From contig JBHHVK010000003.1 of NCBI GenBank assembly GCA_046754205.1, positions 1-33,414 of the forward strand: a stretch of 33,414 nt of DNA, in the 5' to 3' direction. The notes under the pieces are model-generated. The model was not told where the DNA came from. It saw only the letters and a program-made list of their open reading frames with translations, and did not search any database. Positions 3,527 to 27,435 of this stretch are shown piece after piece. This DNA comes from Thermodesulfobacteriota bacterium (lineage in GTDB: Bacteria > Desulfobacterota > GWC2-55-46 > JBHHVK01). How positions within the stretch are numbered: position 1 is the stretch's first letter; the number at the start of each line of letters is the position of its first letter. Made by a program: the position numbers and the translations under genes.

Positions 3527-6100
3527 GTGAGGGGAGACTCCTTGGAAAGGAACGGTTCGGCGACGGGTCTTAAGAAGGCGCTGCTTGCATCAGCCGTCTT
3601 CATCGGGGTTACATGCCTGGTTTACTATCCGGTGGCCTCGGACCCCACGGGGGCCGTCACAGGGCCCGCCGATGACGCCAACGCCATCATCTGGCACCTC
3701 TGGTGGTTCGCCCGCTCCATGGCCGACCCCAGGTACTCACCCTTTTTCACCACCTTCGTGGAGAGCCCCTTCGGCGTTGAGCTCACGCAGATGACCCTGG
3801 CCAACCACCTCGCGGCGCTGCCGATTACGTGGCTCATCGGCCCGGTGGGGTCATACAACCTGATGATCCTCCTGTCCTTCTTCCTCTCAGGGCTCGCCGT
3901 ATACCTCCTCGTCTTTGAACTTACCGGCTCATTCGCCCCGGCCCTCTTCGCCGGCCTTGCCTACTCCTTTTCCCCCTATCACACGGTCTTCTCCGCCTCC
4001 GGCGGCATGGACGCCGCCCAGATTCAATACATGCCCTTCACATTGCTCTTCGCCGTAAGGTTCGCGCGCACGAAAAGGCCCGTCCACATGGGCCTCGCCT
4101 TCCTCTTCTTCGCGCTCTCCGTCTTCTCCTTCGGGTACTACGCCGCGCTCGCGGCCGTGGCCATCGCCGTCTGCGTGCTCTACTTCTACGGGGCGCACGA
4201 TTCCCCGGCCGTGGAAGGGGCCGGCAACGCCAGGGCCGGTTCCGGCAGGATCTTTCTCGCCGCTGCGGCGGGCTTCAGCATACTGGTCCTCCTGTCCAAC
4301 ACCGCTGAGGACGTCTCCACGATGCTCAAGATATCGGCGCTCCTCGCCGCCCCCGTGGCGGCCGCTGTATACTTTTTCGGAGGCCGCCCGGTAGCCGCGG
4401 GTGCGGCGGAAGGGCCAGGCAGCGCCGCCTTCGGGGGCCGGCAGGGCCGTGGAGCCCCGGTCGAGGGCCTCCGGTCAATCTGGGGCGGGCTCAAACCCGG
4501 CCATAGGCTGTCCATGGCGGCGGGAGCGGCCCTCTTCGCCGGGTCGGTATACCTCTTCCTCCACCCACTGCTCGATATCGCCGCGAGACCCATATCGGAC
4601 TCCTATATAGTCCCATGGTACAGCTACCTCTTCCCGGCCCCCGACCATCCGCTTCTTGGCGGCCTCGTACCCGAAGCCCTCACGCCGCCGGGCGACCCGC
4701 TCTCGGGCAGGATGGTCCACGTCGGCTTCACCCTCACGATACTGGCGCTTGCAGGGGCGCTTATAAGGCTCCCGTCGGCGTCCGGCGGACGCGCCCGGAG
4801 GTCGAGGGGGTTTTTCGCCTTCCTCCTCGCCGCCGGGGTCCTGCTCCTCATACCCCCGGTGATAAGGGCCGGGGACTTCGTCTTCCGCGCCCCGGTCTAC
4901 TATCTCCACGCCCTGCTCCCCCCCTTCGTGGACATAAGGAGGGTCATAGTCCTCGTCGTCCTCGCTTCATCCGTGCTCGCCGGGCTCGCCCTCTGGGCCC
5001 TCACCGACGGGATCCGCGCACGGTCCGTCAGGGCCGCCGTCTTCATCGCCGCCGCGGCGCTCCTCGCCGTGGAGTTCGCCCCCTCGGTCGGCTACACCGA
5101 CATGACAGGGGTCCCGGGGGCGTACCGCTGGCTCGCCGATCGGCCCGATGAGGTCACGGTCATCGAGTACCCCCTTACGTCCATCTATGACGCCGGGAGG
5201 TACGAGGCCTTCTACGGCCAGACCATACACTCCAAAAGGCTCGTAAACCCCTTCGCCGCGGTCGGGCACGACCCGAGGCCCGTAAACCGGGCCCTCGGAA
5301 AGCTCATAGACAGGGGAGGGGCGGGGGCCTCACCCTTCGCCAACCCGGGGCTCGCCGCCTCGGTGCTTGCGCGAATAGGCGTCGACTACGTGGTGGTGAG
5401 AACCGACAAGCTCGGGGTGGCGCCGATGATAGACCCGGACCTCGGGCTCGACGAGGTCGCGTCCTTTCCGGACTCGAAGGTCTACAGGGTCTCGGCCCAG
5501 GCGGCAACTGCCACCGTGAGCTTCACGGGATTCAGTCGAGGCGGATATTTCATCAACGAGCTTCAGCGGGGCGAAGACGCCTTTGTGAACATAAGCCGCT
5601 TCGTCCGACCCCCGGCCCTCTGGGACAGGGCCGGGGACGCCGCGAGAGCGTGGCTTGCCTTCGGACGGAGCGCGACGCTCAGGATAACGCCGTTGGTCGA
5701 CGGGGCCATGACCTATGACCTCAGGTTCAAGGCGAAGAGCTACGCCGCCCCCGCCTCGATGACCGTGACCGTCGACGACGGCCGTTCCCTCGTATTTCCC
5801 CTCGCGCCCGAGGCGCGCGAGTACAGGGTCCCTGGCCTCACCGTGCGTGCCGGCTCCAGGGGGGTATCTCTCCGCATGGAGCTGGACGGCAGGGCGCCGC
5901 TCGTGCCCACCGGCGCGGCCGCGCCCCAGGGCGTCGGAAAGGTCTCCGTCGGCGCGGCCATAAGGGGGGTGACGCTTATCCCCGGGCCGGCCCCTGCCCG
6001 GCGCGGGTCCGGAGGAGAAAACCGCGGGATAGGGACGAAGACCTACGACGGGATATACCTCTCCGGCGGGTCCGTCGGGCCGCAGGGCCGTCGCTCATGA
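3527..6100 (+). CDS. Polytopic membrane protein, putative GT-C-fold glycosyltransferase (YfhO-like) with C-terminal extracytoplasmic domain
   Basis: 857 aa; acidic DD after first TM (GPADDANAIIWHLWW), YNLMILLSFFLSG..YLL, AGLAYSFSPYH, many TM segments, AYRWLA..VIEYP..YGQTIHSKRLVN pattern. Confidence 0.65.
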   Translation: MRGDSLERNGSATGLKKALLASAVFIGVTCLVYYPVASDPTGAVTGPADDANAIIWHLWWFARSMADPRYSPFFTTFVESPFGVELTQMTLANHLAALPITWLIGPVGSYNLMILLSFFLSGLAVYLLVFELTGSFAPALFAGLAYSFSPYHTVFSASGGMDAAQIQYMPFTLLFAVRFARTKRPVHMGLAFLFFALSVFSFGYYAALAAVAIAVCVLYFYGAHDSPAVEGAGNARAGSGRIFLAAAAGFSILVLLSNTAEDVSTMLKISALLAAPVAAAVYFFGGRPVAAGAAEGPGSAAFGGRQGRGAPVEGLRSIWGGLKPGHRLSMAAGAALFAGSVYLFLHPLLDIAARPISDSYIVPWYSYLFPAPDHPLLGGLVPEALTPPGDPLSGRMVHVGFTLTILALAGALIRLPSASGGRARRSRGFFAFLLAAGVLLLIPPVIRAGDFVFRAPVYYLHALLPPFVDIRRVIVLVVLASSVLAGLALWALTDGIRARSVRAAVFIAAAALLAVEFAPSVGYTDMTGVPGAYRWLADRPDEVTVIEYPLTSIYDAGRYEAFYGQTIHSKRLVNPFAAVGHDPRPVNRALGKLIDRGGAGASPFANPGLAASVLARIGVDYVVVRTDKLGVAPMIDPDLGLDEVASFPDSKVYRVSAQAATATVSFTGFSRGGYFINELQRGEDAFVNISRFVRPPALWDRAGDAARAWLAFGRSATLRITPLVDGAMTYDLRFKAKSYAAPASMTVTVDDGRSLVFPLAPEAREYRVPGLTVRAGSRGVSLRMELDGRAPLVPTGAAAPQGVGKVSVGAAIRGVTLIPGPAPARRGSGGENRGIGTKTYDGIYLSGGSVGPQGRRS

Positions 6101-7533
6101 CGTTGCCCTGCCGAAGGGACAAAAGTATGTGGATGAAGATGATCCGAAAGGTTGAGGCCGGCCCCGGGGCGAAGGCGCGGCAGCGGACGGGGGCCGGACC
6201 ATGCCCCCTGTTAAAGGCCCTTGTCCTGGTCCTGACCATGATCCTTCTCGCCGGCGCTTCCTCCCCGGCCAGGGCGTCGGACCTCCTTAAAAACCCAGGG
6301 CTCGACGTCTGGGAGGGCGGCGTCCCCGAAGGGTGGTCCGGGGAGGGGGGAGGGGCCATCGAAAAGGCCGGCCCCGAAGGGGGCGGCGCTTTGAGGTTCG
6401 AGTCCAGCGGCGGGGGCGCGCCCTTCATCTTCCAGAAGCTCCAGGCCAGGGCCCGCTATAGAGGGTCGCTCATGACCTTCTCCGCATGGGTGAAGACGGA
6501 CTCTCCCGAGAGCGCCTATCTCGAGTTCTCGAACAGGGCGGGCATGGACGTGTCGAGCGAACCCCACCCCGGAGACGGCCTGTGGCACAGGCTCGAGGTC
6601 ACCGCCAAGGTCCCCGCAAGGGAGGGGGCCGTCGAGTGGAGGATAAGGAACTACGCCCCCGGTGTCACATACGTTAAGGGCGCGGAGCTTACGACAGGCG
6701 CGGGGACACCGGCCGCGGGCGAGGCCGCGGGGCTTGTCATGGGCGGGGAGGGCGGGGCCCTCTGGCTCGCCTCCCTCGGCGCGCTGATGGCGGTAACGGT
6801 CGTCTTCTTCAGGCGCAGGAGAGGGACCATCGAGGCGAGGCTCGTCGAGGCCGCCCTGCTGCTCCTCATCATATCAAACGCCATGCTTATTCTGAAAAAC
6901 GGGGGCTACGCTGCGGTGACCGCAAACCTCGCCTGGGCCGCCTTTGTCGCGGCCGCCGCGGTCTTTGCGGCATCACGTTTCAGGGCCGGGATTATCCTTT
7001 CCCTCGCAAGGCCCGGTGCCCTGTACCTGACCCTCATGGGCGCCGCCATCGTTATCCTCGTCCACTCCCTTTACAGGGGGGACCTCGGGGGCGCCGAGAG
7101 GACGGCCGGGGCGCTCTACGCCCTTATGGTCATCGAAGTGGCCGTCATCGTGGCGAGAAAGGCGCTCGCCTACAGACGAGACGCGGCATCGACAAGAGCC
7201 CTCTCGATACGGATCGAGCCGCGCGCGAAGCACGCTGCGAAGGGGCGCGTACCCATGGCGCCTCCCCCCGGGCTCGAAGGCCTTGCCGAAAGGGAATCGG
7301 CCGGCGCTGCATGGGCCGGGCGGACGGGGGAGGCAGAGGGCCGGCTCCACGGACCGGGGGCCGGGTACGCCGAAAGAGGAGGGATGGGTAGAGATCCGGC
7401 GCCTCACAGGGGGTTGAGCTCGCTTGAGATTACGCAATTTGGCCGCGGAGCCGGGGGCGAAGCCCCCCGGCATGGAGAAGGGCCGGGTTTAGGGGGAGAG
7501 GAGAGTTTAACCGACAAAGGGAGGACGCGATGA
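6097..7533 (+). CDS. Membrane protein with signal-like segment, carbohydrate-binding-module-like domain (CBM4/9-like) and ~5 TM helices; true start may be somewhat downstream
   Basis: ALVLVLTMILLAGASSPARA|SDLLKNPGLDVWEGGVPEGW...TFSAWVKT...W..LEV pattern; stop overlaps next ATG. Confidence 0.55.
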   Translation: MTLPCRRDKSMWMKMIRKVEAGPGAKARQRTGAGPCPLLKALVLVLTMILLAGASSPARASDLLKNPGLDVWEGGVPEGWSGEGGGAIEKAGPEGGGALRFESSGGGAPFIFQKLQARARYRGSLMTFSAWVKTDSPESAYLEFSNRAGMDVSSEPHPGDGLWHRLEVTAKVPAREGAVEWRIRNYAPGVTYVKGAELTTGAGTPAAGEAAGLVMGGEGGALWLASLGALMAVTVVFFRRRRGTIEARLVEAALLLLIISNAMLILKNGGYAAVTANLAWAAFVAAAAVFAASRFRAGIILSLARPGALYLTLMGAAIVILVHSLYRGDLGGAERTAGALYALMVIEVAVIVARKALAYRRDAASTRALSIRIEPRAKHAAKGRVPMAPPPGLEGLAERESAGAAWAGRTGEAEGRLHGPGAGYAERGGMGRDPAPHRGLSSLEITQFGRGAGGEAPRHGEGPGLGGEESLTDKGRTR

Positions 7534-8960
7534 AGGTAGTTCTCACAAGGCCCAATTACCACAGCCACCTCATAACCCCCCAGCTCGGCATCGGGTACAT
7601 ATCCTCCTATCTGAAAAAAAACGGGGTGGACTGCTTCATAGTAGACGGGCTCAACCACGGCCTCACGAACTACGAGATACTCGACCGGTGCAAGGACGCC
7701 GACGTGGTCGGCATAAACTGCCTGAGCGACTACTACCCGGCCGTGGCCGACCTCTCCAGGCTCTTGAGGTCGCGCGGAAAGACAGTGGTCATAGGGGGCG
7801 CGCACCCGTCGGTGCTCCCCCATGAGACGCTCAAGGGCACGGAGGCGGACTACGTGGTGGTGGGCGAGGGCGAAGAGACGATGAGCGAGCTCGTGGCCGC
7901 CATCGCCCGGGGCGGGCCGACGGACGCCATTCCGGGCGTCTGCTCCCGGGAGACGAAGGAGTTCGAGAGGAGGGACTACATAAAGGACCTCGACTCGCTC
8001 CCCTTCCCGGACTGGGAGGAGATGGACCCGAGGACGTACAAGAAGGCACCCCACGGGGGGTTCGTAAAAAAGTTCCCCGTTGCCCCCGTAACCTCCACCC
8101 GGGGCTGCCCCTACGTCTGCACCTTCTGCGCCAGCCCGGAGATATGGGGCCGCCGCATAAGGTACAGGTCGCCGGCGAACGTGGTGGACGAGATAGAGTA
8201 CCTGGTCCGCGAGTACAGGGTAAAGGAGATCCACTTCGAGGACGACAACCTAACGCTCAAGAGGAGCCACGTCGAAGGGATCTGCGAGCTCATACTCGAA
8301 AGGGACATAAAGGTCAGCTGGGCGACCCCGAACGGCATACGGGTGGACACCATAACCCCGAAGCTCCTGAAGCTCATGAAAAGGAGCGGGTGCTACTTCA
8401 TCGCCTTCGGCATCGAGTCGGGCAACGACGAGATACTGAGGAACATAAACAAGGAGACCGACCTCGCCACCATCACCTACGCCGTAAGGGAGGCGAAAAA
8501 GGCCGGGATGCTGACCCAGGGGTTCTTCATATTCGGCCTGCCCGGAGAAACGGAGCGCACCATAGCCAGGACGGTGGAGTACGCGAAGTCGATCCCGCTC
8601 GACAAGGCCCAGTTCCTCCTGCTCGACGTGCTCCCCGGCTCCGGGATATGGAAGGACCTGAGACAGTGGCACACCCCAGACCCCACGAGGAGGAGCTACC
8701 AGCAGGTCTCGTGGGTCCCCGACTCCATACAGCGCGATTTTCTCGAGGCCGCGCCTTCGAAGGCGTTCAAGAAGTTCTTCCTGCGGCCACGGCAGGTCTA
8801 CACCGCGCTCAAATACATAAAACCCTCGCAGTTCAACTTCGTGGTGCGCCGCATGGCGGACTTCGGCATCATCCCCGGCGCCGCCAAAAAGGACCCCGCC
8901 CCGCCGCACAGGACGCCCGGGCTGCCGAAGACGGGAGCTGCCGGGAACAAGGTGCGGTAA
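7530..8960 (+). CDS. B12-binding-domain radical SAM protein (class B methyltransferase-like)
   Basis: PQLGIGYISSYL, GGAHPS, GEGE, TRGCPYVCTFC (CxxxCxxC), EDDNL, FGIESG; SD GGAGG. Confidence 0.92.
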   Translation: MKVVLTRPNYHSHLITPQLGIGYISSYLKKNGVDCFIVDGLNHGLTNYEILDRCKDADVVGINCLSDYYPAVADLSRLLRSRGKTVVIGGAHPSVLPHETLKGTEADYVVVGEGEETMSELVAAIARGGPTDAIPGVCSRETKEFERRDYIKDLDSLPFPDWEEMDPRTYKKAPHGGFVKKFPVAPVTSTRGCPYVCTFCASPEIWGRRIRYRSPANVVDEIEYLVREYRVKEIHFEDDNLTLKRSHVEGICELILERDIKVSWATPNGIRVDTITPKLLKLMKRSGCYFIAFGIESGNDEILRNINKETDLATITYAVREAKKAGMLTQGFFIFGLPGETERTIARTVEYAKSIPLDKAQFLLLDVLPGSGIWKDLRQWHTPDPTRRSYQQVSWVPDSIQRDFLEAAPSKAFKKFFLRPRQVYTALKYIKPSQFNFVVRRMADFGIIPGAAKKDPAPPHRTPGLPKTGAAGNKVR

Positions 8961-8984
8961 AGAGATGGAAAGGGATAGACTTTC

Positions 8985-9593
8985 ATGCCTCTGCCCATAG
9001 CACATTCGCTGCTGTCGACGAGCGTATTCGTCGCCTCGAGCGGCAGGCTCCGCCTGAGGGACAACTACCGGCTCCTCGCCCTCTTCATATTCGTGGGCCT
9101 CTTCCCGGATGCGGACTTCATCACGCTCCCCTTCTTCGGGTTCGGGCTCCACAGGGGCCTGAGCCACTCGCTGTTCTTTACGACCGCAGCCTCCATGGCC
9201 ATCTACGCCGCCGCCAGGCCATGGATGAGGGACACGCCGGCCCGGCTCTGGCTCTATCTCGCGGTCGCCATGGGGCTCCATCCCATCTGCGATTTTTTCA
9301 CCCCCGACCTGCTCGAAACGCGCGGGGGCGTGATGCTCTTCTATCCCCTGAGCTCCGCCTACTATGAATCGCCATGGCCCGTCTTCATGGGCATAGAGCT
9401 CCGATACCTATACACCATCTTCAGTTTCCACACCATCGTGGCGCTCATCCACGAGACCATCGTGGCAGGGTCGGTCCTTTTGGCCGTCATCTTCATAAAG
9501 AGGGGCACCGTGGCGGCGTCTCGCAGACGTGGGTCGGGCGAGGGACGCCCCGCTGTCCCGATAACCACCTGCGAGAGGGGCGGTGATGAGTAG
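8985..9593 (+). CDS. Inner-membrane metal-dependent hydrolase, YdjM family
   Basis: HSL, PDAD, HRGLSHSL, HPICD motifs with TM segments. Confidence 0.8.
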   Translation: MPLPIAHSLLSTSVFVASSGRLRLRDNYRLLALFIFVGLFPDADFITLPFFGFGLHRGLSHSLFFTTAASMAIYAAARPWMRDTPARLWLYLAVAMGLHPICDFFTPDLLETRGGVMLFYPLSSAYYESPWPVFMGIELRYLYTIFSFHTIVALIHETIVAGSVLLAVIFIKRGTVAASRRRGSGEGRPAVPITTCERGGDE

Positions 9594-9683
9594 CTTCGGC
9601 CCCCGCAAAAGCTCCTTTCATGCCGCGTCCGGCGGGCCGTGCCCGCCTGTGAGCGGGCGGCCGCAAGAGAGGGAAGGTGTGAT

Positions 9684-10691
9684 ATGAGCGCCATGACCAG
9701 GGTGAAAAAAGACCTCGGCTTCCTGTCGAGAATAGCGCTCTGCCACATCACCGGCAGGCGCTACCCGCTGTCCGTCACCTACATCGCCACCTACAGGTGC
9801 AACTTCGCCTGCAGGTACTGCGACGTCTTCACGTACAAGACCAGGGAGATGACCACCTCCGAGGCGCTCTCGATGATAGACGAGTTCGCCTCCATCGGCG
9901 CGCGCAGGTTCAGCTTCAACGGCGGCGAGCCGCTCCTCAGGGCCGACATAGGGGAGCTCGTTGCCCGGTGTAGACAAAGGGGGCTCTTTACAACGATGTT
10001 CACGAACGGCTCGCTCGTGGCCAGGAACCTGAGGAAGATAAAGGACCTCGACATCCTCTCCGTTAGCCTCGACGGCCCCGAGGACATACACGACGCACAG
10101 CGCATGAAGGGCAGCTTCGGCAAGGTCGTCGAGGGGATAAGGGCGGCGAAGGACGCCGGCGTGAAGGTATGGACGAACACCGTCCTTACGAGCCTGAACC
10201 TCGCGCGCATCGACGAGGTGGTCGCCCTCGCAGAGTCCCTCGGGGTTAAGATGATATTCCAGCCCGTCATCGACTACTCCCACTCCTCGGGGTCGAGGAA
10301 TATAAACGGCCTCAAGGCGCTCGACGGCGACTACGCGAGGGCCATCGAAAGGCTCAGGGACCTGAAGCGCCGGGGCGCCCCGATAGTCCACTCCGACGAG
10401 TACCTCGACTACATAAAGGTCCCCGTCTGGTCGCAGAACAAGAGAAAGTGCTGGGCCGCGCAGCTCTACTGCGCCGTGACGCCCTCGGGGCAGGTAGCCC
10501 CCTGCTACCCCATATTCAACGCCGGGGACTGGCCGAGCGGGCTGGATATCGGCTTCGGCAACGCCTTCCTCAAGAACAGGACCTTCTCCTGCGACGGATG
10601 CTACTGCGCCCTCGTGGAGACCGACTTTCTATACTCCTTCAACGTCCGGGCGATGCTGAACCTCGCAAGGTCCGTGGAGGCAAGGTCATGA
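9684..10691 (+). CDS. Radical SAM protein with C-terminal SPASM/twitch-like Cys domain
   Basis: CNFACRYC, GGEPLLR, TNG, VSLDG; C-terminal CWAAQLYCAVTPSGQVAPC...CDGCYC; start set at ATG 9684 behind a purine-rich SD-like stretch. Confidence 0.88.
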   Translation: MSAMTRVKKDLGFLSRIALCHITGRRYPLSVTYIATYRCNFACRYCDVFTYKTREMTTSEALSMIDEFASIGARRFSFNGGEPLLRADIGELVARCRQRGLFTTMFTNGSLVARNLRKIKDLDILSVSLDGPEDIHDAQRMKGSFGKVVEGIRAAKDAGVKVWTNTVLTSLNLARIDEVVALAESLGVKMIFQPVIDYSHSSGSRNINGLKALDGDYARAIERLRDLKRRGAPIVHSDEYLDYIKVPVWSQNKRKCWAAQLYCAVTPSGQVAPCYPIFNAGDWPSGLDIGFGNAFLKNRTFSCDGCYCALVETDFLYSFNVRAMLNLARSVEARS

Positions 10692-16866: not shown

Positions 16867-17015
16867 ATGGGCCGGGTGTGCGGCTGCGCGAAAGGGTGCG
16901 CCTGCGGGGGGCCGGGGCGCGGGAAGGCCCACGGGGCCTGCGGCCGAAGGGTCCGGCGCCGTGGGAGCGGCCGGTCCCGCCGGCCTTCGGAGCGGGTGGG
17001 ACGCATGGGGGCGCC

Positions 17016-20000: not shown

Positions 20001-20732
20001 AGGCGGCCCTCCTTTACAATCGAGTCCATGAGGCTCGTCCGCTACGTGCCCGAGCGGGTGGAGCCCACAGCCGGGGGCGTCTACGGCCTCGTCCTCGACG
20101 GCTCGCCCCTTCGAAGCGGGGCGGATGGTCCCGTTGGCGGAGCGGTCGAGGTCGCCCGGGGAAGGCACACCCTCGGGGTGTGGAGGGCCGGCAAGGACGG
20201 GCCCGGGGATTTCGTCATAAGGATTGCCCCGGCAGCGCCCCTGCCCGCGACAGCTGACCCGCCCCCGGAGGTGGCCGGGTACGTGAAGGTCTCCCCGGCC
20301 CGGTACACCGTCCGGGTAAGGGGGCAGAAGGGCCCCTTCTGGCTCGTCTTCAACGAGGGCTTCAACCCGGGGTGGAGGGCCTACGCAAGACCCGCGCCCG
20401 AAGGCGCGGGCGGGGGTGGCAATGGGGGCAAGAGGGGCGAGGGGGGCGGGGGGGGCGGGGGGGTCGGGGGTGGGAAGGGGAGGGGGGGCAAGGGGGACGG
20501 GAAGGAGCTCGTCGGCCATTACCTCGTAAACGGGTACGCCAACGCGTGGTGGGTGGACGGCATCGGGGCCGCCCCGGGCGGGGCGCTCGATATATCCATC
20601 GAGTACACGCCACAGAGGACCTTCCGCGCCGGTAAGATAATTTCAATCCTTTCAGCGGCCTTCATGCTCGCCGGTCTGCCCGTCGGCGCGCTCGTCCTCA
20701 AGAGGTTCTGCCCCCGTGGCCGAACCCGGTGA
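17016..20732 (+). CDS. Large GT-C-fold membrane protein, AftD(DUF3367)/YfhO-like, with long extracytoplasmic region and C-terminal TM; ORF is open from 16878, GTG 17016 preferred
   Basis: YLWDERLYAG, AALFYMLN, FFIFRAPSRYF, YLNYTWG, VYENEKALPHIY, and YfhO-like C-terminus LVFNEGFNPGWRAY...VNGYANAW...IEYTPQRTFRAGKIIS. Confidence 0.7.
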   Translation: MSKESVAIGAAGLAGAVSRERREALIAVCALVVLGLTALTWFRGDAYAVAGYDFATSLRPLDDLTRAFYLWDERLYAGSPNLLAIGTIPYFLLQYVLQTLMGSLWRGQMVFFTLLFLAPGLSMYFFARTIFAQARDRGAMALLAALFYMLNTFVVVKWNRGELITLFGYGMLPLYLGLFEKILTDGPGPARLALFILAMFFYPVTLGHAADFVITTGIFCAFAAWRVAFGGEPGGSLSKRAGAAAAAALAVVLTGAWWIAPLAASILSSFPAGGAGGVAGAGGAGGIASFALADLGLVRYYSSWAGLLNVMKMWFFPMYSTDFEFTTQFYRPGTLLFPIIGFSALLFRRNRYVLFFAALAAAGLWLSKGSHEPLSGLYEWMYQNVPFFFIFRAPSRYFPVIYVFSLTVLTGYSVVSASAAIKRRLPASKVLYRMPVGFVMALVFFHSWPVFSRDVIFRNVTDDVLHPSVFMDLPPYYERLGGWLSAKEKERYFRVHSFTNQAYLNYTWGYSSTDISPKVLEVPQTVKFSQELLFGVPGFHTMMDYFDRSFWDWDFAGTGEVLGLLSVRYITSIDDVIRRYLPHTNYPEILDGVLPRLPGITPAAGFGPAIVYENEKALPHIYTAGRGKVVYGGLASLRTLAGAGYLARPVLVFAGGDSGYGPGDMPPGSMDEVVYADTNVYDAIVDSAPREYRFSPGPGRTEFLVETPGVSLVWSLKGSDPSGRARIEGLDARRTPAGAETPEGLRWEFLGSWDTAVQGQYISVEEGGTGELVVLPEEEWEAAAGGVLKAEGPERPWPVTRLLRAREGGPPGGFAFRSTGGLHLIDVTPQPTFRKKEEALYRKDFTEDPDLGDWIFEADTLVAADGGVTIIPRKGKDGMHAGRMLNEQPPASAGTPPGVDIEEYPYLLVKAGSKPEGYFDADAVLRLDFNGDGVVDSEMRAPLIRDGEDVGPLDLTTLLKRQYGYPGRRAYRAVSVTLDVSRASGAGRPEGPGGERRPSFTIESMRLVRYVPERVEPTAGGVYGLVLDGSPLRSGADGPVGGAVEVARGRHTLGVWRAGKDGPGDFVIRIAPAAPLPATADPPPEVAGYVKVSPARYTVRVRGQKGPFWLVFNEGFNPGWRAYARPAPEGAGGGGNGGKRGEGGGGGGGVGGGKGRGGKGDGKELVGHYLVNGYANAWWVDGIGAAPGGALDISIEYTPQRTFRAGKIISILSAAFMLAGLPVGALVLKRFCPRGRTR
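20410..20502 (+). repeat. In-frame G-rich tract encoding a Gly-rich insert
   Basis: Encodes GAGGGGNGGKRGEGGGGGGGVGGGKGRGGKGDG between GWRAY and HYLVNG motifs. Confidence 0.7.
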
Positions 20733-20753
20733 AGGGTACCGAGGAGAACGGTT

Positions 20754-21974
20754 ATGGAACGTACAGTCGGAAATAGAAGCGATTCATCGGGCGCAGCCCG
20801 GGGACCGGACCAGGGAAGGGGCGGCGCATGGTCCCTTAAGGCGGCCCTTGCCGTCGCCGCCGCTCTGGCCCTCGGGTTCTCCTTCGCCCTCTTCAGCAAC
20901 CTTTTCACCTATCACGACCAAGAGGTCTTCCGGGCGGACCTCCTCTCCGGCGCCGACAACCCGCTCATCGCAGCGACGCAGGCGTCGCAGCGGGACGTGT
21001 TCGTGGTGAACGGCAGGAAGGAGTCCCTGGTATGGCTCAGGGACAAGTCCCTCGAGGTCCCCTTTGCCGCCAAAAGGCCCCAGGCGCTCCTGTTCCGGCT
21101 CAGGGCCTACTTCCAGAAGTCCAACTACACCAGGGCCGGGGTCGAGCTGACGGTAAACGGCAGGACCGTTCACACCTACAAACCCCGCTGGAAGGGCGGC
21201 TTCGAGGATATCGAGCTGATGGTCCCGGGAGCGGCCCTCATCAAGGGGCCCAACAGGCTGGGCATCAGGGTCCTCGGCGCCGGGGCGCGAAGGGTAGGGG
21301 TCGAAAACCTGAGGGTCAAGAACTACGCCGGTGTGAGCAAGAACTTCCCGACCTCCGTCGTCCTCTTCGACGAGAACTACCATGGAGAGGGATATTCCGC
21401 ATACACCAGGCCGCTTGACTACGTCTTCTATCCGGTGGCCTTCTTCCTGGTCTGGCTCATCTCGGCCAACACCGCCGCCCTCGGGGGCTTGCCCCTGAGC
21501 GTCGCTCTGAGGAAGGCCTTCTACGTATATCTGCCGACAGTGGTCGTCCTCGCCGGCGTTGTCCTCTTCTCGGTAGCTTCAGCCTATACGGTCGTATGCC
21601 GAAGGGACACCTTCCTCATCTTCGTCTTCGTCCCCGGGGGGCTCTATTTTGTCTACCATAACTTACGGTCCCTCGCCAGGCGCCTGACCAGAATGCCGCT
21701 CCCCGCCGCCCCAAGGGCCCCCGTGGAAGTGAGGACAAAGACCCGGGCCCCGAAGCTGCGCCTCAGGACCGAGCGTCTCGCGGCGGGGGCAAGGTTTCTT
21801 GTGAGGCACATCGCCACCGCTGCCATCGCATTTTTTATATTATGCCTCCTCTCGGCAGGGGTGCTCCTCATATTCGAGTACCGGACCCCGGCCGAGAGGC
21901 TCGCCGATGTCGCCTACTTCTCGCTCGTCGTCGGGGTCCTTACGAGGATCTTCGACCTGAGAAGGGGCGAGTGA
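20754..21974 (+). CDS. Hypothetical membrane protein (N-terminal TM, beta-rich extracytoplasmic domain, ~5 C-terminal TMs)
   Basis: 406-aa ORF with SD GAGGAG, codon usage like neighbours; VELTVNG...LIKGPNRLGI beta-sandwich-like pattern. Confidence 0.7.
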   Translation: MERTVGNRSDSSGAARGPDQGRGGAWSLKAALAVAAALALGFSFALFSNLFTYHDQEVFRADLLSGADNPLIAATQASQRDVFVVNGRKESLVWLRDKSLEVPFAAKRPQALLFRLRAYFQKSNYTRAGVELTVNGRTVHTYKPRWKGGFEDIELMVPGAALIKGPNRLGIRVLGAGARRVGVENLRVKNYAGVSKNFPTSVVLFDENYHGEGYSAYTRPLDYVFYPVAFFLVWLISANTAALGGLPLSVALRKAFYVYLPTVVVLAGVVLFSVASAYTVVCRRDTFLIFVFVPGGLYFVYHNLRSLARRLTRMPLPAAPRAPVEVRTKTRAPKLRLRTERLAAGARFLVRHIATAAIAFFILCLLSAGVLLIFEYRTPAERLADVAYFSLVVGVLTRIFDLRRGE

Positions 21975-22079: not shown

Positions 22080-23402
22080 ATGACCGCACAGAGGGGTCTT
22101 GGAAATTTTGCATCGATAGTGGCCGGGAATTTTCTCAACAAGGCCGTCTCCATCGTCGTGCTCTCATACCTCACCTGGCACCTCGGCCCCTCGGGCTTCG
22201 GCAGGTACTCCTTCGTGGTGGCCTATATGACCTTTTTCGGGATATTTACCGACATGGGCGTAAATACGGTGACGGTGAGGGCGATCTCACGGGGCGCGGT
22301 GGACCGGTCCGAGGCCTTCGGGGCGGCCATCGTGCTGCGTCTGGTGCTGACAGTGGCGGCCCTGGCCGCCTCTTTCGCGGCCCTCCGCCTTTCCGGCTAC
22401 GGACGCGACGTCCTGGTAACAGCCCTCGCCGCCGCCCCGGCGCTCTTCGTCTCCTTCAGGGGGCTATTTTTCAGGAACGTCTTCGAGATACCCTTCCTCG
22501 CCGACCTCAGGATGGACCGGCCCGCCCTCGTCAACTTCGCGAACGAGCTCCTTGTCCTCGCCGTCGTCGTGGTGATGGTCACCAGGGGCGCGGGGCTCGT
22601 AGAACTCCTTGTCGCCATAAACATCGCCTACGTGCCCGGCTTTGCGGTCATGGCAATATCGGCCGTCAGACGCATGAGGCCGAGGTTCGCGCTCAAGGCC
22701 GGCCCCTGCTGGAGACTCTTGAAGGAGTCGGCCCCGCTCGGATTGTCGGGCCTGCTTGAGGGGGTCTTCATCATAACACCTGTCCTCGTGCTCTCCAGGC
22801 TCGCCACCCCGGCCTCCCTCGGCCTCTTCACCCTGCCGCTGAGGCTCGTCTCGTCGCTCTGGATAATACCCGTGGCCGTAATGGTCACCATGCTGCCGGC
22901 CATGAGCCGGGATGCGGGGCGGGACAGGGCGGCGCTCAGAAGGAGGCTCACCGCGGGCCTCGGTTTCATGGTGCCGGCCGGGTTCGTCCTCGCGCTCGCG
23001 GCCTCGCTCTTTTCGGACGAGATAATCATTCTCCTTTCGGGCGAGGCCTTCGCCCGGTCCTCCACTGTGCTTTCGATAATGGCCTGGGGGACGTTCCTCT
23101 ATTTCGTCAACTCCGTATTCTTCTACACCTTCGCCGCCGCCGGCCGGGAGCTTTTCGGTCTCCTGCCTTGGTGCGCGGCTACGGCGGCCTCGTTTATCCT
23201 CGGGCTCATCTTCATACCGAGGTTCGCCCACCTCGGGGCGGGCTGGGCCTTCACCATATCGATGGCGGCGGGGCTCGCGGTAAACCTCGCGCTCATAGGG
23301 CGGGTATTCGGCGCGACCCTTCATGGCGTATTTTCCGGAGGGTCAAAGGCCTCGGGCGGGGGGCCGCGCCTGGCCCTCCGCGCGACAAAGGAAGAAAAGT
23401 AA
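22080..23402 (+). CDS. wzx: Wzx-type oligosaccharide flippase (MOP superfamily)
   Basis: LGPSGFGRYSFVVAY..FFGIFTDMGV; ~12 TM; LIFIPRFAHLGAGWA. Confidence 0.85.
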   Translation: MTAQRGLGNFASIVAGNFLNKAVSIVVLSYLTWHLGPSGFGRYSFVVAYMTFFGIFTDMGVNTVTVRAISRGAVDRSEAFGAAIVLRLVLTVAALAASFAALRLSGYGRDVLVTALAAAPALFVSFRGLFFRNVFEIPFLADLRMDRPALVNFANELLVLAVVVVMVTRGAGLVELLVAINIAYVPGFAVMAISAVRRMRPRFALKAGPCWRLLKESAPLGLSGLLEGVFIITPVLVLSRLATPASLGLFTLPLRLVSSLWIIPVAVMVTMLPAMSRDAGRDRAALRRRLTAGLGFMVPAGFVLALAASLFSDEIIILLSGEAFARSSTVLSIMAWGTFLYFVNSVFFYTFAAAGRELFGLLPWCAATAASFILGLIFIPRFAHLGAGWAFTISMAAGLAVNLALIGRVFGATLHGVFSGGSKASGGGPRLALRATKEEK

Positions 23403-23409
23403 GAGAGAG

Positions 23410-24909
23410 ATGGAAGCCGGAGAGCTTAAAAGAGGGGTTATCACCCATACCGCAGGGGCCGAAAGAGGCGGCGCCGTCGGTGCAGGGCTCGCCGGCGCGT
23501 GGCCGAGGGCCGTACCCGCCTTCGCCCTCTTCGCGCTGTCCGTCATCTTCATAACCCTCCCGCTCTTCTTCGAGCGTCTCCACTCCGACGAGGTCATCTA
23601 CTGGGACGTGGCCAGGAACATCGCTGCCGGGGCCGGCGTTACGAGCGAGACCCTGGGCGGTGTCTTCTTCTGGCACGCCCCGTTGCCCTTTTTCATCGTG
23701 GCGCCTTTCCTCAAGCTCTCGGAACACATCTTCCTTGCGAGGGCCCTATCGAGCCTCTTTACCGCCGGGTGCGCGGTCCTGGTCTTTCTCATCGCCGAAA
23801 GGAAGGCTTCGAGGGCCGAGGCCGCGCTCTCCGCCGTCCTCTTCGTCTTCAGCTTCCAGGCCCTCAGGTACGGGGGCAGGTTTTACCTCGACCAGTACGG
23901 GGCCTTCTTCTTCCTCCTCGCCCTATACCTCCTGGGCGCGGGCCGGGTCTTTGCCGCAGGGGTATCGGCCGTCCTCATGTGCGCGGCGCGGGAGTACTGG
24001 CTCGGGGTCTATCCCTTCATGCTCCTCTACGCGGCCCTCGACAAACGCCGCGGGTCCGCTTCGGCCTTTGCGGCCCCCATGGTAGTAACCGCCCTGGCCC
24101 TTGCGGCCGCTCTCGCCGCCTACGGCGCGCTGCCCCGGGCCTGGGCCTTCGCCTCGGGCGGGGCGATAGCCAGGAACGTCTACGCCTCGCTGACGGCTCA
24201 TACCGCCGGGGGTCTCCTCTCATCCCTTGCCCGCGGTTGGACGGAATTCGCGGCGCTCAACGCCGTCGTAATAGCGGGCTTCATCGCCTGGACCATTACC
24301 ACCGGACCGAGGAGGTACCTCCTGCTCGCCCTTCCTCAGGTCCTTCTCATAAGCCTCGTACACGGCTTCATCGTCGACGGCGGTGCGACCCAGTACCCGC
24401 TGGCCCTGGTCGCGGCGCTCGCCCCCTTCTCCGGGCCGGGGCTCGCGCGCCTCTGGGGGCGTCTCCCCCTGAGGGGGCTTACGGGCCGCCGGTTCGTCCC
24501 GGCTGCAATAGCCGTGGTGGCGGTCCAGTACGCGGCCCTCAACGTGCTGGCGACTACGGTCTCGCTTCACCAGAACTCCGGCGTCTACGGCCTCGGCTAC
24601 GGGCCTGACCGCGAGGTCATCGGCAAACTCAGAAGAGAGGCCAGGGGGGACTTCATCCACGGCATACACGGCGCCTTTGTCCCGGACAGGTCCAGATGGG
24701 ACTGGACGGACTACTACTTCGCCGATGCGATAGAAAAGGACCCCGACTGGCTCGTGGCCTACTCCAACTACCTCGAGGTCCTCCCGCACGACCGGTGGAA
24801 AGGCAGGGCCGAGGTCGAGGTCATAGGCCCGTACACGGTCGTCCACTCCCTCGAGCGCGGCGGAGTTGCCCGGGCCGTGGCCGCGGCCGGTCCAAAGGGC
24901 GACGGCTGA
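23410..24909 (+). CDS. ArnT/PMT-like (GT83/GT39-like) GT-C glycosyltransferase
   Basis: HSDEVIYWDVARNI (DE motif), HAPLPF, LARALS, multiple TMs; start set at ATG 23410 after the flippase stop. Confidence 0.75.
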   Translation: MEAGELKRGVITHTAGAERGGAVGAGLAGAWPRAVPAFALFALSVIFITLPLFFERLHSDEVIYWDVARNIAAGAGVTSETLGGVFFWHAPLPFFIVAPFLKLSEHIFLARALSSLFTAGCAVLVFLIAERKASRAEAALSAVLFVFSFQALRYGGRFYLDQYGAFFFLLALYLLGAGRVFAAGVSAVLMCAAREYWLGVYPFMLLYAALDKRRGSASAFAAPMVVTALALAAALAAYGALPRAWAFASGGAIARNVYASLTAHTAGGLLSSLARGWTEFAALNAVVIAGFIAWTITTGPRRYLLLALPQVLLISLVHGFIVDGGATQYPLALVAALAPFSGPGLARLWGRLPLRGLTGRRFVPAAIAVVAVQYAALNVLATTVSLHQNSGVYGLGYGPDREVIGKLRREARGDFIHGIHGAFVPDRSRWDWTDYYFADAIEKDPDWLVAYSNYLEVLPHDRWKGRAEVEVIGPYTVVHSLERGGVARAVAAAGPKGDG

Positions 24910-24937
24910 CGGAAAAAAACAATAAAAGGACGGGATC

Positions 24938-26341
24938 ATGCTCAAGGAGCACAGCAGGATATTCTTAAACATCCTCTTCCTCATAGACCTCGCATCCATC
25001 GCAATAAGCTGGACGGGCTCATACTACCTCAGGTTCTACTCGGGGCTCCTGCCGGCGCCCAGCGGCGCGCCAGAAGAGCTGCCCTACCTCCTCGCCGCCG
25101 CGCCGGTGGCGCTTATATGGGGCCTCTCGCTCAAGGGGTTCGGCCTGTACAGGCCCCGTAGGCTCGGCAACCGCGCCTCGGAGACCCTGGACATCGCCAA
25201 GGCGTCTCTCGCCGCTACTCTCGTGCTCGTCGCCGTCACCTTCTTCGTCAGACAGTACGAGTTCTCCAGGATGGTCATCGTCATCTTCTTCTTTCTCGGC
25301 ACCGCGCTTCTCGGCACTTCGAGGTACCTCTTCAGGGAGGTCCTCAGGTACATAAGGAAGAGGGGGTTCAACATCAAGCGCGCCATCGTGGCCGGCACGG
25401 GCGCTCCCGCCAGGGTGGTCATAGAGAGGCTCGAAGGCCATCCCGAGGTGGGCATAGAGATTACAGGCGTTGTCACGGGCGCGAGGGGCGACGCGGGCTC
25501 AAGGGTATTCGGCGTGGAGGTGATAGGCGATTACAACGACCTCGGCATGCTCATAAAGGGGCGCTGCGTGGACATCCTCTTTATAGCGCTATCCTGGAAC
25601 GAGCACTCGAAGGTTATGGACATCCTCAAGTCCCTATCCGACGAGACGGTCGACATAATGGTCGTCCCGGACCTCTACGAGTTCATAACCCTCGGCGGCG
25701 GCGTCGAGGAGTTCGACGGGCTCCCGGTCCTCAACCTCCAGAACACGACCATCTACGGCTGGAACAAGATCGTCAAACGGGGCGCCGACATCGTAATAGC
25801 TTCGATACTCCTCGCCCTGACCTCTCCTCTCATGGTCCTCCTCGCCGTCCTCGTCAAGGCCACCTCCCCCGGGCCGGTACTCTACAGGCAGGAGAGGATG
25901 AGCATCGGCGGCGACACCTTCAAGATACTCAAGTTCCGCTCCATGTGGACCGGAGCCGAGGGGGCCTCCGGGGCCGTATGGGCCGGCCCGGGAGACCCGA
26001 GGAGGACGCGTATCGGGGCCTTTCTCAGAAGGACGAGCCTCGACGAGCTGCCTCAGCTCATAAACGTGCTCCGCGGAGATATGAGCCTCGTGGGCCCGAG
26101 GCCCGAGCGGCCGGTCTTCATAGAGGAGTTCAGGAAGAACGTCCCCAGGTACATGCTCCGCCACAAGATGAAGGCCGGCATCACAGGCTGGGCCCAGGTG
26201 AACGGCTGGAGGGGCAACACGGACCTGAAAAAAAGGGTCGAGCACGACCTCTACTACATAGAACACTGGTCCTTCATCTTCGACGTAAAGATACTCTGGC
26301 TCACGCTCTGGAAGGGCCTCATAAACCGCAACGCCTACTGA
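24938..26341 (+). CDS. wcaJ: Undecaprenyl-phosphate glucose phosphotransferase (WcaJ/GumD-type priming phosphoglycosyltransferase)
   Basis: 4 N-terminal TMs, KRGADI, KFRSM, LRRTSLDELPQLINVLRGDMSLVGPRPE, GITGWAQVNG, DLYYIEHWS. Confidence 0.9.
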   Translation: MLKEHSRIFLNILFLIDLASIAISWTGSYYLRFYSGLLPAPSGAPEELPYLLAAAPVALIWGLSLKGFGLYRPRRLGNRASETLDIAKASLAATLVLVAVTFFVRQYEFSRMVIVIFFFLGTALLGTSRYLFREVLRYIRKRGFNIKRAIVAGTGAPARVVIERLEGHPEVGIEITGVVTGARGDAGSRVFGVEVIGDYNDLGMLIKGRCVDILFIALSWNEHSKVMDILKSLSDETVDIMVVPDLYEFITLGGGVEEFDGLPVLNLQNTTIYGWNKIVKRGADIVIASILLALTSPLMVLLAVLVKATSPGPVLYRQERMSIGGDTFKILKFRSMWTGAEGASGAVWAGPGDPRRTRIGAFLRRTSLDELPQLINVLRGDMSLVGPRPERPVFIEEFRKNVPRYMLRHKMKAGITGWAQVNGWRGNTDLKKRVEHDLYYIEHWSFIFDVKILWLTLWKGLINRNAY

Positions 26342-26361
26342 AAACCAGGGGGGATTGCCCG

Positions 26362-27435
26362 ATGAAAAAGCGGATTCTCATAACCGGCGGCGCAGGGTTC
26401 GTCGGCTCGAATCTCGCCGTATCCTTCAAGAAGAAATATCCCGGCACGGAAGTCACGGCCCTCGACAACCTCAAGCGGCGCGGCTCCGAGCTGAACCTGG
26501 CGCGACTCGCAGGCCAGGGCGTCGACTTCGTCCACGGGGACGTCAGGGACCCCGGGGACCTCGCGGTTGACGGCGACCCGCCGGAGGTCATCATAGAGTG
26601 CTCGGCCGAGCCGAGCGTGCTCGCGGGCTTCGACTCCGGCCCTGGTTACGTCGTCAACACCAACCTCCTCGGCGCCTTCAACTGCCTCGAGGCCGCGCGC
26701 AGGTGGAATGCCGACGTCCTGTTCCTCTCGACTTCGAGGGTCTACCCCGTTGAAAAACTCAACTCCGTGAACTTTACCGCGGAGGAGACCCGCTTCGAGC
26801 TTGCCCGCGAGCAGACCATCCCCGGGGTCTCGGCGCTCGGCATCACGCCTGAGTTCCCGCTCGCCGGCCACCGCACCCTCTACGGGGCCACGAAGCTCGC
26901 CGCCGAGCTGCTCATCGAGGAGTACGGCTACATGTACGGGCTCCGGGCCGTGATAAACCGCTGCGGCGTCATAGCCGGCCCCTGGCAGTTCGCCCGCGTG
27001 GACCAGGGGGTCTTCACGCACTGGCTCGGCTCGCACTACTTCAAAAAACCGCTCGCCTACTTCGGCTACGACGGCTCGGGCAAGCAGGTGCGTGACCTCC
27101 TCCACGTGGACGACCTCTTTGAGCTGATCGACCTGCAGGTCGAAAACATCGCCAGGATGGACCGCTCGGTCTTCAACGTCGGGGGAGGCCCCGGTATCAG
27201 CCTCTCTCTGGCGGAGACCACCGAGCTCTGCGCGAACATAACCGGCAACAAGACGGAGGTGAGGGGCAAGAGCGGGCGGAGGGCTGCGGACATACCCATC
27301 TACCTCTCCGACAACAGCGGGGTGAATGACGCCACGGGCTGGCTCCCAAAAAAGGGCCCGGTTGAGATACTCAGCGACATCTTCAACTGGATACGATCCA
27401 ACGAGTCGCATGTCAGGAACACCCTCTTCCCCTGA
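26362..27435 (+). CDS. NAD-dependent epimerase/dehydratase, CDP-paratose 2-epimerase (RfbE/Tyv)-like
   Basis: ILITGGAGFVGS, DNLKRRGS, YGATK, NRCGVIAGPWQF..VDQG, GKQVRDLLHVDDL, FNVGGG; start ATG 26362. Confidence 0.85.
   Translation: MKKRILITGGAGFVGSNLAVSFKKKYPGTEVTALDNLKRRGSELNLARLAGQGVDFVHGDVRDPGDLAVDGDPPEVIIECSAEPSVLAGFDSGPGYVVNTNLLGAFNCLEAARRWNADVLFLSTSRVYPVEKLNSVNFTAEETRFELAREQTIPGVSALGITPEFPLAGHRTLYGATKLAAELLIEEYGYMYGLRAVINRCGVIAGPWQFARVDQGVFTHWLGSHYFKKPLAYFGYDGSGKQVRDLLHVDDLFELIDLQVENIARMDRSVFNVGGGPGISLSLAETTELCANITGNKTEVRGKSGRRAADIPIYLSDNSGVNDATGWLPKKGPVEILSDIFNWIRSNESHVRNTLFP

Follow-up and report, generated by a model that had tools for sequence, protein, structure and literature searches.

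Organization of the locus

The locus described here lies on contig JBHHVK010000003.1 of a Thermodesulfobacteriota bacterium (GenBank assembly GCA_046754205.1), in a stretch of 33,414 nucleotides that is referred to as the window. The locus spans positions 3527–27435 and is composed of 15 closely packed genes, g01–g15, all on the plus strand, as defined by an open reading frame (ORF) listing and by Pfam and NCBIfam scans. Five genes encode radical S-adenosylmethionine (SAM) enzymes (g03 and g05–g08). Four encode proteins with a modeled or candidate glycosyltransferase fold of the GT-C type (g01, g09, g10, and g13). The remaining genes specify a YdjM-family protein (g04), two membrane proteins without a family (g02 and g11), a Wzx-type flippase (g12), a WcaJ-type priming enzyme (g14), and a short-chain dehydrogenase/reductase (SDR) epimerase (g15). 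The source genome (G000, with the window as contig C3) amounts to 2.2 Mb in 319 contigs and is 93.7% complete. The G+C content across the window is 59–68%. Public contigs of metagenome-assembled genomes (MAGs) related to the locus carriers are titled Deltaproteobacteria, and several of them come from groundwater.

The genes overlap by 4–8 bp at four junctions: g01/g02 (6097–6100), g02/g03 (7530–7533), g05/g06 (10688–10691), and g07/g08 (13802–13809). The remaining gaps within g01–g15 are 12–153 bp long. The radical SAM block is flanked by GT-C genes on either side, and the 4-bp overlap of g02 and g03 joins the end of a membrane protein gene to the start of a B12 radical SAM gene. An earlier note, written from the sequence of this DNA alone, had described 14 co-directional, partly overlapping genes. 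The direction and the overlaps are as described, but the count is 15; g04 and the polytopic proteins g02 and g11 were missing from its list.

GT-C and other membrane proteins

A PDB sequence search with g10 and profile searches with g09, g10, and g01 retrieved nothing meaningful, the best matches being a GH31 C-terminal domain (E 0.07) and artefacts from GPCR fusions. Pfam at E-values up to 10 gave no match for g02, g10, or g11, and only a meaningless DUF543 match for g09 (E 2.5). GT-C status was therefore taken from structure models.

The g09 gene (14914–16866) encodes a 650-residue protein with an N-terminal anchor, a β-sandwich resembling carbohydrate-binding modules (CBM) of families 6, 35, and 36 (residues 34–194), and a GT-C domain of the PimE/PIG-M type (residues 230–648). 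The AlphaFold2 model, based on 18 sequences, has a pLDDT of 74.3 and a pTM of 0.78. The GT-C domain is most similar to Candida GPI mannosyltransferase I (9wno_A), with a Z-score of 21.1 and a root mean square deviation (rmsd) of 4.3 over 341 aligned residues. It also matches PIG-U (Z 17–19), PimE (9dm5, Z 17.1), and ArnT (5f15, Z 14.9). The β-sandwich matches CBM structures with Z-scores of about 13–14, those of CBM35 chains being about 14. In the protein Atlas, g09 is placed beside GT87 clusters with a feature score of 0.95 and a structure TM-score of 0.68 by row. Pfam gives no match between g09 and the GT87/PimE family (PF09594), and the likeness comes from Atlas features and structure only. 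The motif W-I-D267-T-D269-G is invariant in the 18 sequences.

The g10 gene (16878–20732, probable start 17016) encodes 1284 residues, with a GT-C domain like that of AftD, a large soluble domain, and one transmembrane (TM) helix at the C terminus. Residues 60–720 were modeled from 29 sequences with a pLDDT of 77.4 and a pTM of 0.82. The best structural match is mycobacterial AftD (6w98_A), with a Z-score of 25.9 and an rmsd of 4.6 over 534 aligned residues. STT3, PglB, and AglB follow with Z-scores of 17–21, and then Pmt4, AftA, DPY19, ALG12, and ArnT. All of the top 50 structure matches are GT-C-type chains. Residue D99 is nearly invariant among the 29 sequences. A precomputed match to PF11847, the AftD family, is recorded for 10 of the 29 listed relatives, with no match strength given, and g10 of the window has no PF11847 match in Pfam at E-values up to 10. 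The modeled fold of g10 is thus AftD-like, but membership in the AftD family is not supported by sequence.

The evidence for g01 and g13 is of a different kind. The g01 protein (3527–6100, probable start 3542) is an 857-residue polytopic membrane protein with about nine TM helices and a C-terminal soluble domain. Its Pfam match to PMT_2 (E 9.6e-4, 19.8 bits) is under the cut-off of 26.1. In the Atlas, g01 falls among DUF6311 clusters with a feature score of 0.99 and a structure TM-score of 0.78 by row (residues 8–657), and YfhO-named clusters are also found. D49 and D50 are invariant in five orthologues. The g13 ORF (23323–24909) begins at 23323, with a probable start at 23410, and encodes a PMT/ArnT-like candidate. 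Its PF02366 (PMT) score of 22.7 bits is exactly equal to the cut-off, and it scores 17.6 bits with PF13231. An Asp-Glu pair follows its first TM helix.

All four proteins keep acidic residues just past the first helix of the module, and by their position these residues are candidate equivalents of known catalytic residues. Taken together, the models strongly support a GT-C fold for g09 and g10. A GT-C assignment is moderately supported for g01, by the Atlas and the sub-threshold PMT_2 match, and for g13, by the PMT match at threshold. The four GT-C-like proteins of the earlier note thus hold up, two of them through structure models and two on weaker evidence; the folds it expected in the membrane proteins are seen in the models of g09 and g10 and are indicated by the Atlas for g01.

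The other membrane proteins are smaller. The g02 protein (6097–7533, 478 residues) starts with an N-terminal anchor; a stretch of about 170 non-hydrophobic residues then leads to five TM segments, and the tail is of low complexity. The g11 protein (20754–21974, 406 residues) begins with an anchor and about 180 non-hydrophobic residues, followed by TM helices. The two share this layout, and neither has any Pfam or NCBIfam match. On our reading of the sequence, the middle stretch of g02 may be extracytoplasmic and bind sugar. The g04 protein (8985–9593) belongs to the YdjM family of inner-membrane proteins (PF04307, 62 bits; cut-off 29) and is a putative metal-dependent hydrolase.

Radical SAM enzymes

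The five radical SAM proteins are encoded by g03 (7530–8960), g05 (9639–10691, probable start 9684), g06 (10688–12112), g07 (12265–13809), and g08 (13802–14887). The g06 orthologues begin at the same ATG. All five match PF04055 well above the cut-off of 29.5, with scores of 94 (g03), 97 (g05), 70 (g06), 61 (g07), and 77.5 bits (g08), and each contains a single CxxxCxxC motif, as the earlier note had it.

Three of the five possess a vitamin B12-binding domain (PF02310, cut-off 32.1) N-terminal to the radical SAM core, with 65 bits in g03, 78 bits in g06, and 60 bits in g07. Their cluster motifs are CPYVCTFC at residue 193 of g03, CPYKCCFC in g06, and CPFQCTYC in g07. These three are predicted class B, or cobalamin-dependent, radical SAM enzymes. 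Of 12 B12-binding domains above the cut-off in the genome, six lie in this locus and its paralogue described below. According to two sources (PMC12931638, PMC13142503), class B enzymes mostly methylate unactivated carbons, and some contract rings or cyclize.

The other two enzymes, g05 and g08, lack the B12-binding domain and have a cysteine-rich C-terminal part, a candidate auxiliary Fe-S domain of the SPASM/twitch kind. The cluster motif is CNFACRYC at residue 54 in g05 and CNLRCIMC at residue 44 in g08. Six C-terminal cysteines are present in each protein, at residues 271, 278, 289, 318, 321, and 323 of g05 and at residues 261, 273, 291, 326, 329, and 336 of g08. No SPASM match is listed for either protein in Pfam, and all matches to SPASM-family NCBIfam models are under their cut-offs.

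None of the five enzymes reaches a curated NCBIfam cut-off among the 25 families listed per protein, the named class B families such as BchE, HpnJ, HpnR, PhpK, BzaD, and the ladderane-associated one included; at these cut-offs, none is placed in a known non-glycan family. The top scores of g03 are with BchE (172 bits, cut-off 481) and HpnJ (171 bits, cut-off 578), and those of g06 are with BchE (208 bits) and HpnJ (170 bits), again under the cut-offs. A P-methyltransferase family is also matched by both. HpnJ is the top family for g07, under its cut-off. The g05 protein scores best with PTO1314 (135 bits, cut-off 306) and HpnH (96 bits, cut-off 225), and g08 with SkfB and NirJ-type models, under the cut-off. 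Among PDB entries, the best matches are PqqE (1.9e-14) and BlsE (7.7e-14) for g05, and SkfB (6.8e-18) and BlsE (8.4e-10) for g08. TokK is the best match of g07 (3.4e-9), which also matches CysS, TsrM, and AprD4.

All five proteins are predicted to be soluble, the exception being a single hydrophobic segment in g06 and another in g07. The segment of g07, residues 433–451, is conserved and C-terminal in an otherwise soluble protein. It may be a membrane-association helix, as would be expected of an enzyme that acts at the membrane.

Flippase, priming enzyme, epimerase, and flanking genes

The distal part of the locus encodes a Wzx flippase, a WcaJ-type priming enzyme, and an epimerase, as the earlier note had it. 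The g12 protein (22080–23402) matches the Wzx family PF01943 with 75 bits (cut-off 28.2) and has 11 TM helices by hydropathy. The g14 protein (24938–26341), a WcaJ-type polyprenyl-phosphate hexose-1-phosphate transferase, scores 488 bits with the equivalog model TIGR03023, above the cut-off of 410.75, and 227 bits with PF02397. The g15 protein (26362–27435) is an NAD-dependent SDR (PF01370, 126 bits). Its closest solved relative is CDP-tyvelose 2-epimerase (PDB 9rl0_E), matched over the full length at 6.2e-40. No glycosyltransferase of the GT-A or GT-B type is detected in the locus by the Pfam and NCBIfam scans.

A gene for UDP-glucose 6-dehydrogenase, ugd (28077–29378, plus strand), follows g15, with 500 bits to TIGR03026 (cut-off 189.8) and 619 bits to the TuaD model. 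The 642-bp gap before ugd contains a sigma-70-like promoter match on the plus strand (27657–27686, 11 of 12 positions, a consensus match only). The earlier note had placed ugd after the locus; the gene is there, but it probably forms a separate transcript with its own promoter.

The locus is flanked by purM and spoVG upstream and by pyrR, pyrB, and pyrC downstream. The SpoVG ORF (2854–3384) is 176 residues long, but its SpoVG domain and its resemblance to relatives start only at residue 80–81, so that the true start probably lies further downstream. Farther upstream, a 400-residue ORF without a Pfam match (249–1451) is 49–51% identical over about 240 residues at the syntenic place in two related genomes, G006 and G011. 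Between ugd and pyrR lies a 128-residue ORF (29526–29912) with a weak DUF4845 match (E 0.0095), and a terminator-like hairpin (29921–29940) follows it. Rfam at gathering thresholds and ARAGORN find no RNA genes or riboswitches in the window, and hence no cobalamin or SAM riboswitch at that threshold.

Orthologous loci

With g10 as the query, strong matches (E below 1e-200) are found in three of 40 other genomes of the order, namely G004, G006, and G011. G006 and G011 represent two other genera. Both contain the entire locus from g01 to ugd in the same order, between spoVG/purM and ugd/pyrRBC. Partial copies are present on five further public MAG contigs (L013 and L016–L019). Because the full gene order recurs between the same flanks in two other genera, with partial copies on five further contigs, the arrangement is not due to chance.

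The proteins differ in their degree of conservation. Identity to the window is 62–76% for the radical SAM proteins of G006 and G011 and 33–58% for their membrane proteins. The best conserved is g07, with 74–77% identity in relatives, and g02 and g11 are 33–37% identical. The g02 gene is present in all complete orthologous loci, and g04 separates g03 from g05 wherever an orthologous locus spans this stretch. The gap between g06 and g07, 153 bp in the window, measures 34–55 bp in G006 and G011. The g13 orthologues align from residue 48–71 onward.

The gene content also varies. L016 and L019 lack g09. In L013, Wzx is not matched in the interval from g11 to g13, and GT4 genes are inserted between g13 and g14, two in G006 and one in G011. 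Owing to this missing match and these insertions, g01–g11 constitute a conserved core, and the tail encoding the Wzx, PMT-like, WcaJ, and epimerase proteins is more plastic.

L018 (NYYU01000011.1, 7460 bp), labeled as a Parcubacteria group bacterium, carries g03, g04, g05, g07, and g08 at 38–72% identity. On this 7.5-kb contig, g06 is missing, g07 and g08 are separated by 1.2 kb of additional sequence, and no GT-C gene is visible. Its label could reflect misbinning or gene transfer.

A paralogous locus in the same genome

A second locus combining radical SAM enzymes, an AftD-like protein, and GT2 glycosyltransferases is located on another contig of the same genome (G000:C8:4000–23900, L051), with syntenic counterparts in G006 (contig C16, L052) and G011 (contig C1, L053). 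Here, three B12-binding radical SAM enzymes are interleaved with a GT2 and a flavoprotein of the amine-oxidase/GLF type, and one g05-like enzyme is present. The membrane proteins include a PMT_2-like protein (25.6 bits, just below the cut-off), an AftD-like paralogue of g10, and a PTPS_related protein of 994 residues. A second GT2, which is small, a sugar-phosphate nucleotidyltransferase, and an SDR epimerase complete the set. The AftD-like paralogue is 23–29% identical to g10 by tblastn and 28–30% identical in the genome search. Its match on contig C8 was flagged with “3 TGA” in that genome search, but L051 has an uninterrupted frame of 1225 residues. The pairing of radical SAM and GT-C genes has thus been duplicated and kept.

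Distant homologues of g07

At E-values up to 1e-40, g07 has matches in 102 of 401 genomes sampled over the phylum. Orthologues with at least 74% identity occur only in G000, G006, and G011, and the next tier consists of full-length homologues with 34–40% identity. Eighteen loci of this tier were fetched. The neighbors were scanned in 15 of them, from 14 other genomes, L047–L049 being left out; the scanned homologues are 33–38% identical to g07 by tblastn. Most of the 18 loci contain tandem arrays of two to seven B12-binding radical SAM genes.

A GT-C family match above the Pfam cut-off is present in nine of the 15 scanned loci. YfhO is found at L034, L046, and L050, and PMT_2, often fused to TPR repeats, at L033, L035, L038, L041, L043, and L044. 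Other neighbors include small GT2 enzymes in several loci, class I methyltransferases, a UbiA prenyltransferase, Wzy_C, and MurJ. In a few genomes that were counted, 3–4.5 Mb contain about 3–6 copies of YfhO and 6–18 of PMT_2, and a random 20-kb stretch would be expected to contain one of the two in a few per cent of cases. The comparison with nine of 15 is an estimate, not a test, because the scanned neighbors were picked by size and hydrophobicity and the copy counts come from genomes already known to carry such genes. With the orthologous and paralogous loci, these neighborhoods show that the co-occurrence of radical SAM and GT-C genes, to which the earlier note had looked, extends beyond the window.

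In the single-contig genome G073, L034 (on G073:C1; L034 positions 2107–2949 and neighbors) contains a UbiA prenyltransferase, Wzy_C, a YfhO-type GT-C protein, a class I methyltransferase, and a single g07-like B12 enzyme. The arrangement is reminiscent of polyprenyl-phosphate-pentose pathways. L036, where no GT-C gene was found, contains two GT2 genes and a DUF6798 membrane protein.

Among nine longer homologues of g07, five are natural fusions of a B12-binding radical SAM enzyme with a GT2 or GT4 domain. Three other proteins, P0048–P0050, are about 985 residues long, 39–42% identical to g07, and contain B12-binding and radical SAM domains only. They are apparently tandem double radical SAM fusions.

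A possible pathway and its alternatives

We favor, at somewhat better than even confidence, a pathway in which cytoplasmic radical SAM enzymes tailor a sugar that is likely lipid-linked, the product is flipped, and the GT-C enzymes add it to a periplasmic glycan. The reading of the earlier note, in which radically modified sugars or lipid-linked units are made, flipped, and attached to surface proteins, lipids, or glycans, is partly supported; its putative part is that the radical SAM enzymes act on such substrates, and by which chemistry. This reading is supported by the operon structure, the kept gene order, the GT-C folds, the paralogous locus, the distant neighborhoods, the fusion proteins, the hydrophobic segment of g07, and the precedent of the enzymes Cds and HpnJ discussed below. 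From these observations we infer the substrate, the chemistry, the order of steps, and the acceptor as follows. A hexose would be activated and then loaded onto polyprenyl phosphate, and ugd would provide UDP-glucuronate. The five radical SAM enzymes would remodel the sugar at the membrane, most probably while it is lipid-linked, by C-methylation, epimerization, oxidation, decarboxylation, or ring contraction. YdjM may trim an intermediate, and Wzx would flip the product. In the periplasm, g10, g09, g01, and g13 would transfer the sugar onto a growing or pre-existing glycan, and the CBM-like module of g09 could hold the acceptor glycan.

Several observations weigh against this pathway. The locus of the window contains no GT2 polyprenyl-phosphate-sugar synthase that could make monophosphate-linked donors. 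Enzymes of the AftD, PimE, ArnT, and PMT types usually draw on polyprenyl-monophosphate sugars as donors, and the product of WcaJ is diphosphate-linked. Given its variability among relatives, the Wzx/WcaJ tail may be a module of its own. The earlier note's picture of a flippase, a priming enzyme, and an epimerase serving the locus therefore stands for the window, but not as a constant part of the system or as a full supply of donors: GT4 genes are inserted in relatives, one locus has no Wzx match, and a GT2 is missing. The best PDB matches of g05, g07, and g08 span the generic radical SAM core only, and since in addition no enzyme reaches a curated cut-off, the chemistry of the radical SAM enzymes is not assignable from homology. 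Six of the 15 distant loci (L036, L037, L039, L040, L042, and L045) have no GT-C gene among the scanned neighbors, and a triple radical SAM cassette occurs in a non-glycan context in L037 and L039 and, by eye, in L049. The neighbors and the counted genomes were selected as described above, and the fusion proteins are just 25–29% identical to g07.

Three other explanations were considered. The target of the radical SAM block might be a lipid. A membrane lipid, a glycolipid anchor, or the polyprenyl carrier itself could be methylated, cross-linked, or given an adenosyl group, and this lipid would be what the GT-C enzymes handle or decorate. The top NCBIfam likenesses do include the lipid-acting families HpnJ, HpnH, and HpnR and a ladderane-associated B12 radical SAM family. 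The hydrophobic C-terminal segment of g07 would fit as well, and the paralogous locus contributes an amine-oxidase/CrtI-type flavoprotein and a g05-like enzyme with a weak match (16.5 bits) to DUF3463, which we take to be the C-terminal domain of HpnH. However, the scores with these lipid families are far under the cut-offs and are equaled by BchE and by phosphonate or peptide methylases, and the accompanying genes that can be named encode sugar enzymes. We regard a lipid substrate as unlikely. Hopanoids in particular are rejected as the common substrate, as a search for squalene-hopene cyclase gave no match in G006 or G011, which carry the locus and are listed as 100% complete. The genome of the window does contain a squalene-hopene cyclase match (G000:C156:2867–3817, 489 bits), which could stem from a difference between lineages or from faulty binning.

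The pairing could also be one of mere adjacency, with a radical SAM cassette for a cofactor, a metabolite, or a peptide standing beside an unrelated glycan locus. Related cassettes without glycan genes in L037 and L039 (scanned neighbors) and L049 (by eye) would agree with this, as would the block retained on the L018 contig and a radical SAM chemistry that homology does not assign. Against it, the block is nested within the GT-C genes, is joined to g02 by an overlap, and is kept in every orthologous locus that is long enough. The independent paralogous locus repeats the pairing, and fusions to glycosyltransferases exist. Nor does any gap conserved among the relatives fit a precursor peptide, the 153-bp gap between g06 and g07 being the one that shrinks in G006 and G011. 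A chance juxtaposition therefore appears improbable to us, and a ribosomally synthesized and post-translationally modified peptide was given a low rank for want of conserved space for a precursor gene. Least probable of all, and only barely credible, is a system whose target is a secreted or surface protein that receives both glycans and radical modifications, from GT-C enzymes akin to PMT or oligosaccharyltransferase and from peptide-modifying SPASM and B12 enzymes. It draws on the resemblance of g05 and g08 to peptide maturases (SkfB at 6.8e-18, PqqE at 1.9e-14, and the StsB, mycofactocin, and ApyD models) and on the fold of g10, which also matches STT3 and PglB (Z 17–21), along with the match of g13 to PMT. 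But the locus contains no candidate substrate gene, and the best match of g10 is AftD, a glycan-extending enzyme, with g09 carrying a CBM-like domain. Moreover, the radical SAM enzymes are cytoplasmic and the GT-C active sites periplasmic, so that both would have to act on a single exported protein.

The pathway of sugar tailoring, flipping, and GT-C transfer may be extended tentatively. B12-binding and SPASM-like radical SAM enzymes may form a hitherto unrecognized tailoring layer for polyprenyl-linked sugars that recurs over the phylum, whose products are installed only by GT-C enzymes. Ordinary hexoses would thereby become C-methylated, epimerized, ring-contracted, or decarboxylated units. 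We think this wider proposal possible, though doubtful in its full extent.

Comparison with known systems

Mycobacterial arabinan assembly (AftA–D and EmbA–C) resembles the locus in bringing several GT-C enzymes together, and AftD is the best structural match of g10. AftD has a large soluble domain and C-terminal TM helices, as does g10. In the arabinan pathway, DprE1 and DprE2 remodel the sugar on its polyprenyl carrier, and the resulting decaprenyl-phosphate-arabinose feeds AftA–D and EmbA–C. In contrast, the locus lacks a UbiA/DPPR synthase and DprE-type enzymes, and five radical SAM enzymes occupy the place of the tailoring step. Its host is a MAG with a Deltaproteobacteria label, and g10 has no PF11847 match. 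A UbiA gene beside YfhO and a g07-like enzyme is seen only at the distant locus L034.

Three-component glycosylation systems, which consist of a GT2, a flippase, and a GT-C enzyme such as YfhO, ArnT, or GtrC, share a common logic with the proposed pathway: a lipid-linked monosaccharide is made inside, flipped, and transferred outside by the GT-C enzyme. The small GT2 and GT-C pair of such systems is present in the paralogous locus and in many distant loci. The locus of the window differs in having WcaJ in place of a GT2 and four GT-C proteins in place of one. To our knowledge, three-component systems have not been described with radical SAM tailoring. The locus also differs from Wzx/Wzy-dependent polysaccharide loci. 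Wzx is present, but the 15 locus ORFs and ugd have no match to the Wzy_C, Wzz, or Poly_export families, with a divergent Wzy being possible since Wzy is poorly conserved.

Radical SAM enzymes that act on membrane-attached sugars have been proposed. According to PMC13459092, Cds is proposed to turn glucose into calditol on tetraether lipids, and HpnJ to turn glucosamine into the cyclitol ether on bacteriohopanetetrol. On that account, they provide a precedent for a radical SAM enzyme acting on a sugar already attached to a membrane lipid. HpnJ is among the top NCBIfam matches of g03, g06, and g07, yet with 111–171 bits against a cut-off of 577.6. The locus is kept where squalene-hopene cyclase was not found, and its neighbors are glycan genes rather than hopanoid or tetraether genes.

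Sugar-acting radical SAM enzymes of antibiotic pathways include GenK, AprD4, BtrN, DesII, BlsE, and NeoN. AprD4, DesII, and BlsE are among the PDB or NCBIfam matches of g05, g07, and g08, but these matches are weak and confined to the core. The antibiotic enzymes serve secondary metabolism, where their substrates are soluble pseudo-oligosaccharides or nucleotide sugars, rather than an envelope context with Wzx and GT-C proteins.

Both GT-C pathways and the radical SAM chemistry of sugars are familiar. An envelope pathway that joins the two was not found described, in agreement with the earlier note, which knew of no characterized pathway of this composition. In the literature searched for radical SAM enzymes together with GT-C, YfhO, AftD, glycosyltransferase, or polysaccharide/undecaprenyl, a coverage with few subscription journals and no supplements, the combination is not described. 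In term searches of two reviews on B12-dependent radical SAM enzymes (2022 and 2026), the words polysaccharide, glycan, undecaprenyl, lipopolysaccharide, and cell wall are absent, and in a 2026 review on lipid-modifying radical SAM enzymes, undecaprenyl and polyprenyl are absent.

Implications

Conserved, duplicated, and met repeatedly across the phylum, the locus points to extracytoplasmic GT-C glycosylation with a radical SAM tailoring stage, a function that we infer. If the link between the two enzyme classes is functional, it would place several large radical SAM subfamilies that are now orphans in a biological setting and would predict new sugar structures in the envelopes of anaerobes. 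It would also define a set, a lipid-linked hexose and five enzymes, for the in vitro discovery of radical reactions. Related loci are present in single-contig genomes such as G073, perhaps from cultured strains, in which the idea may be testable. If the wider proposal of a tailoring layer is true, many anaerobic bacteria would carry envelope glycans with radical-made sugars that characterized pathways do not explain.

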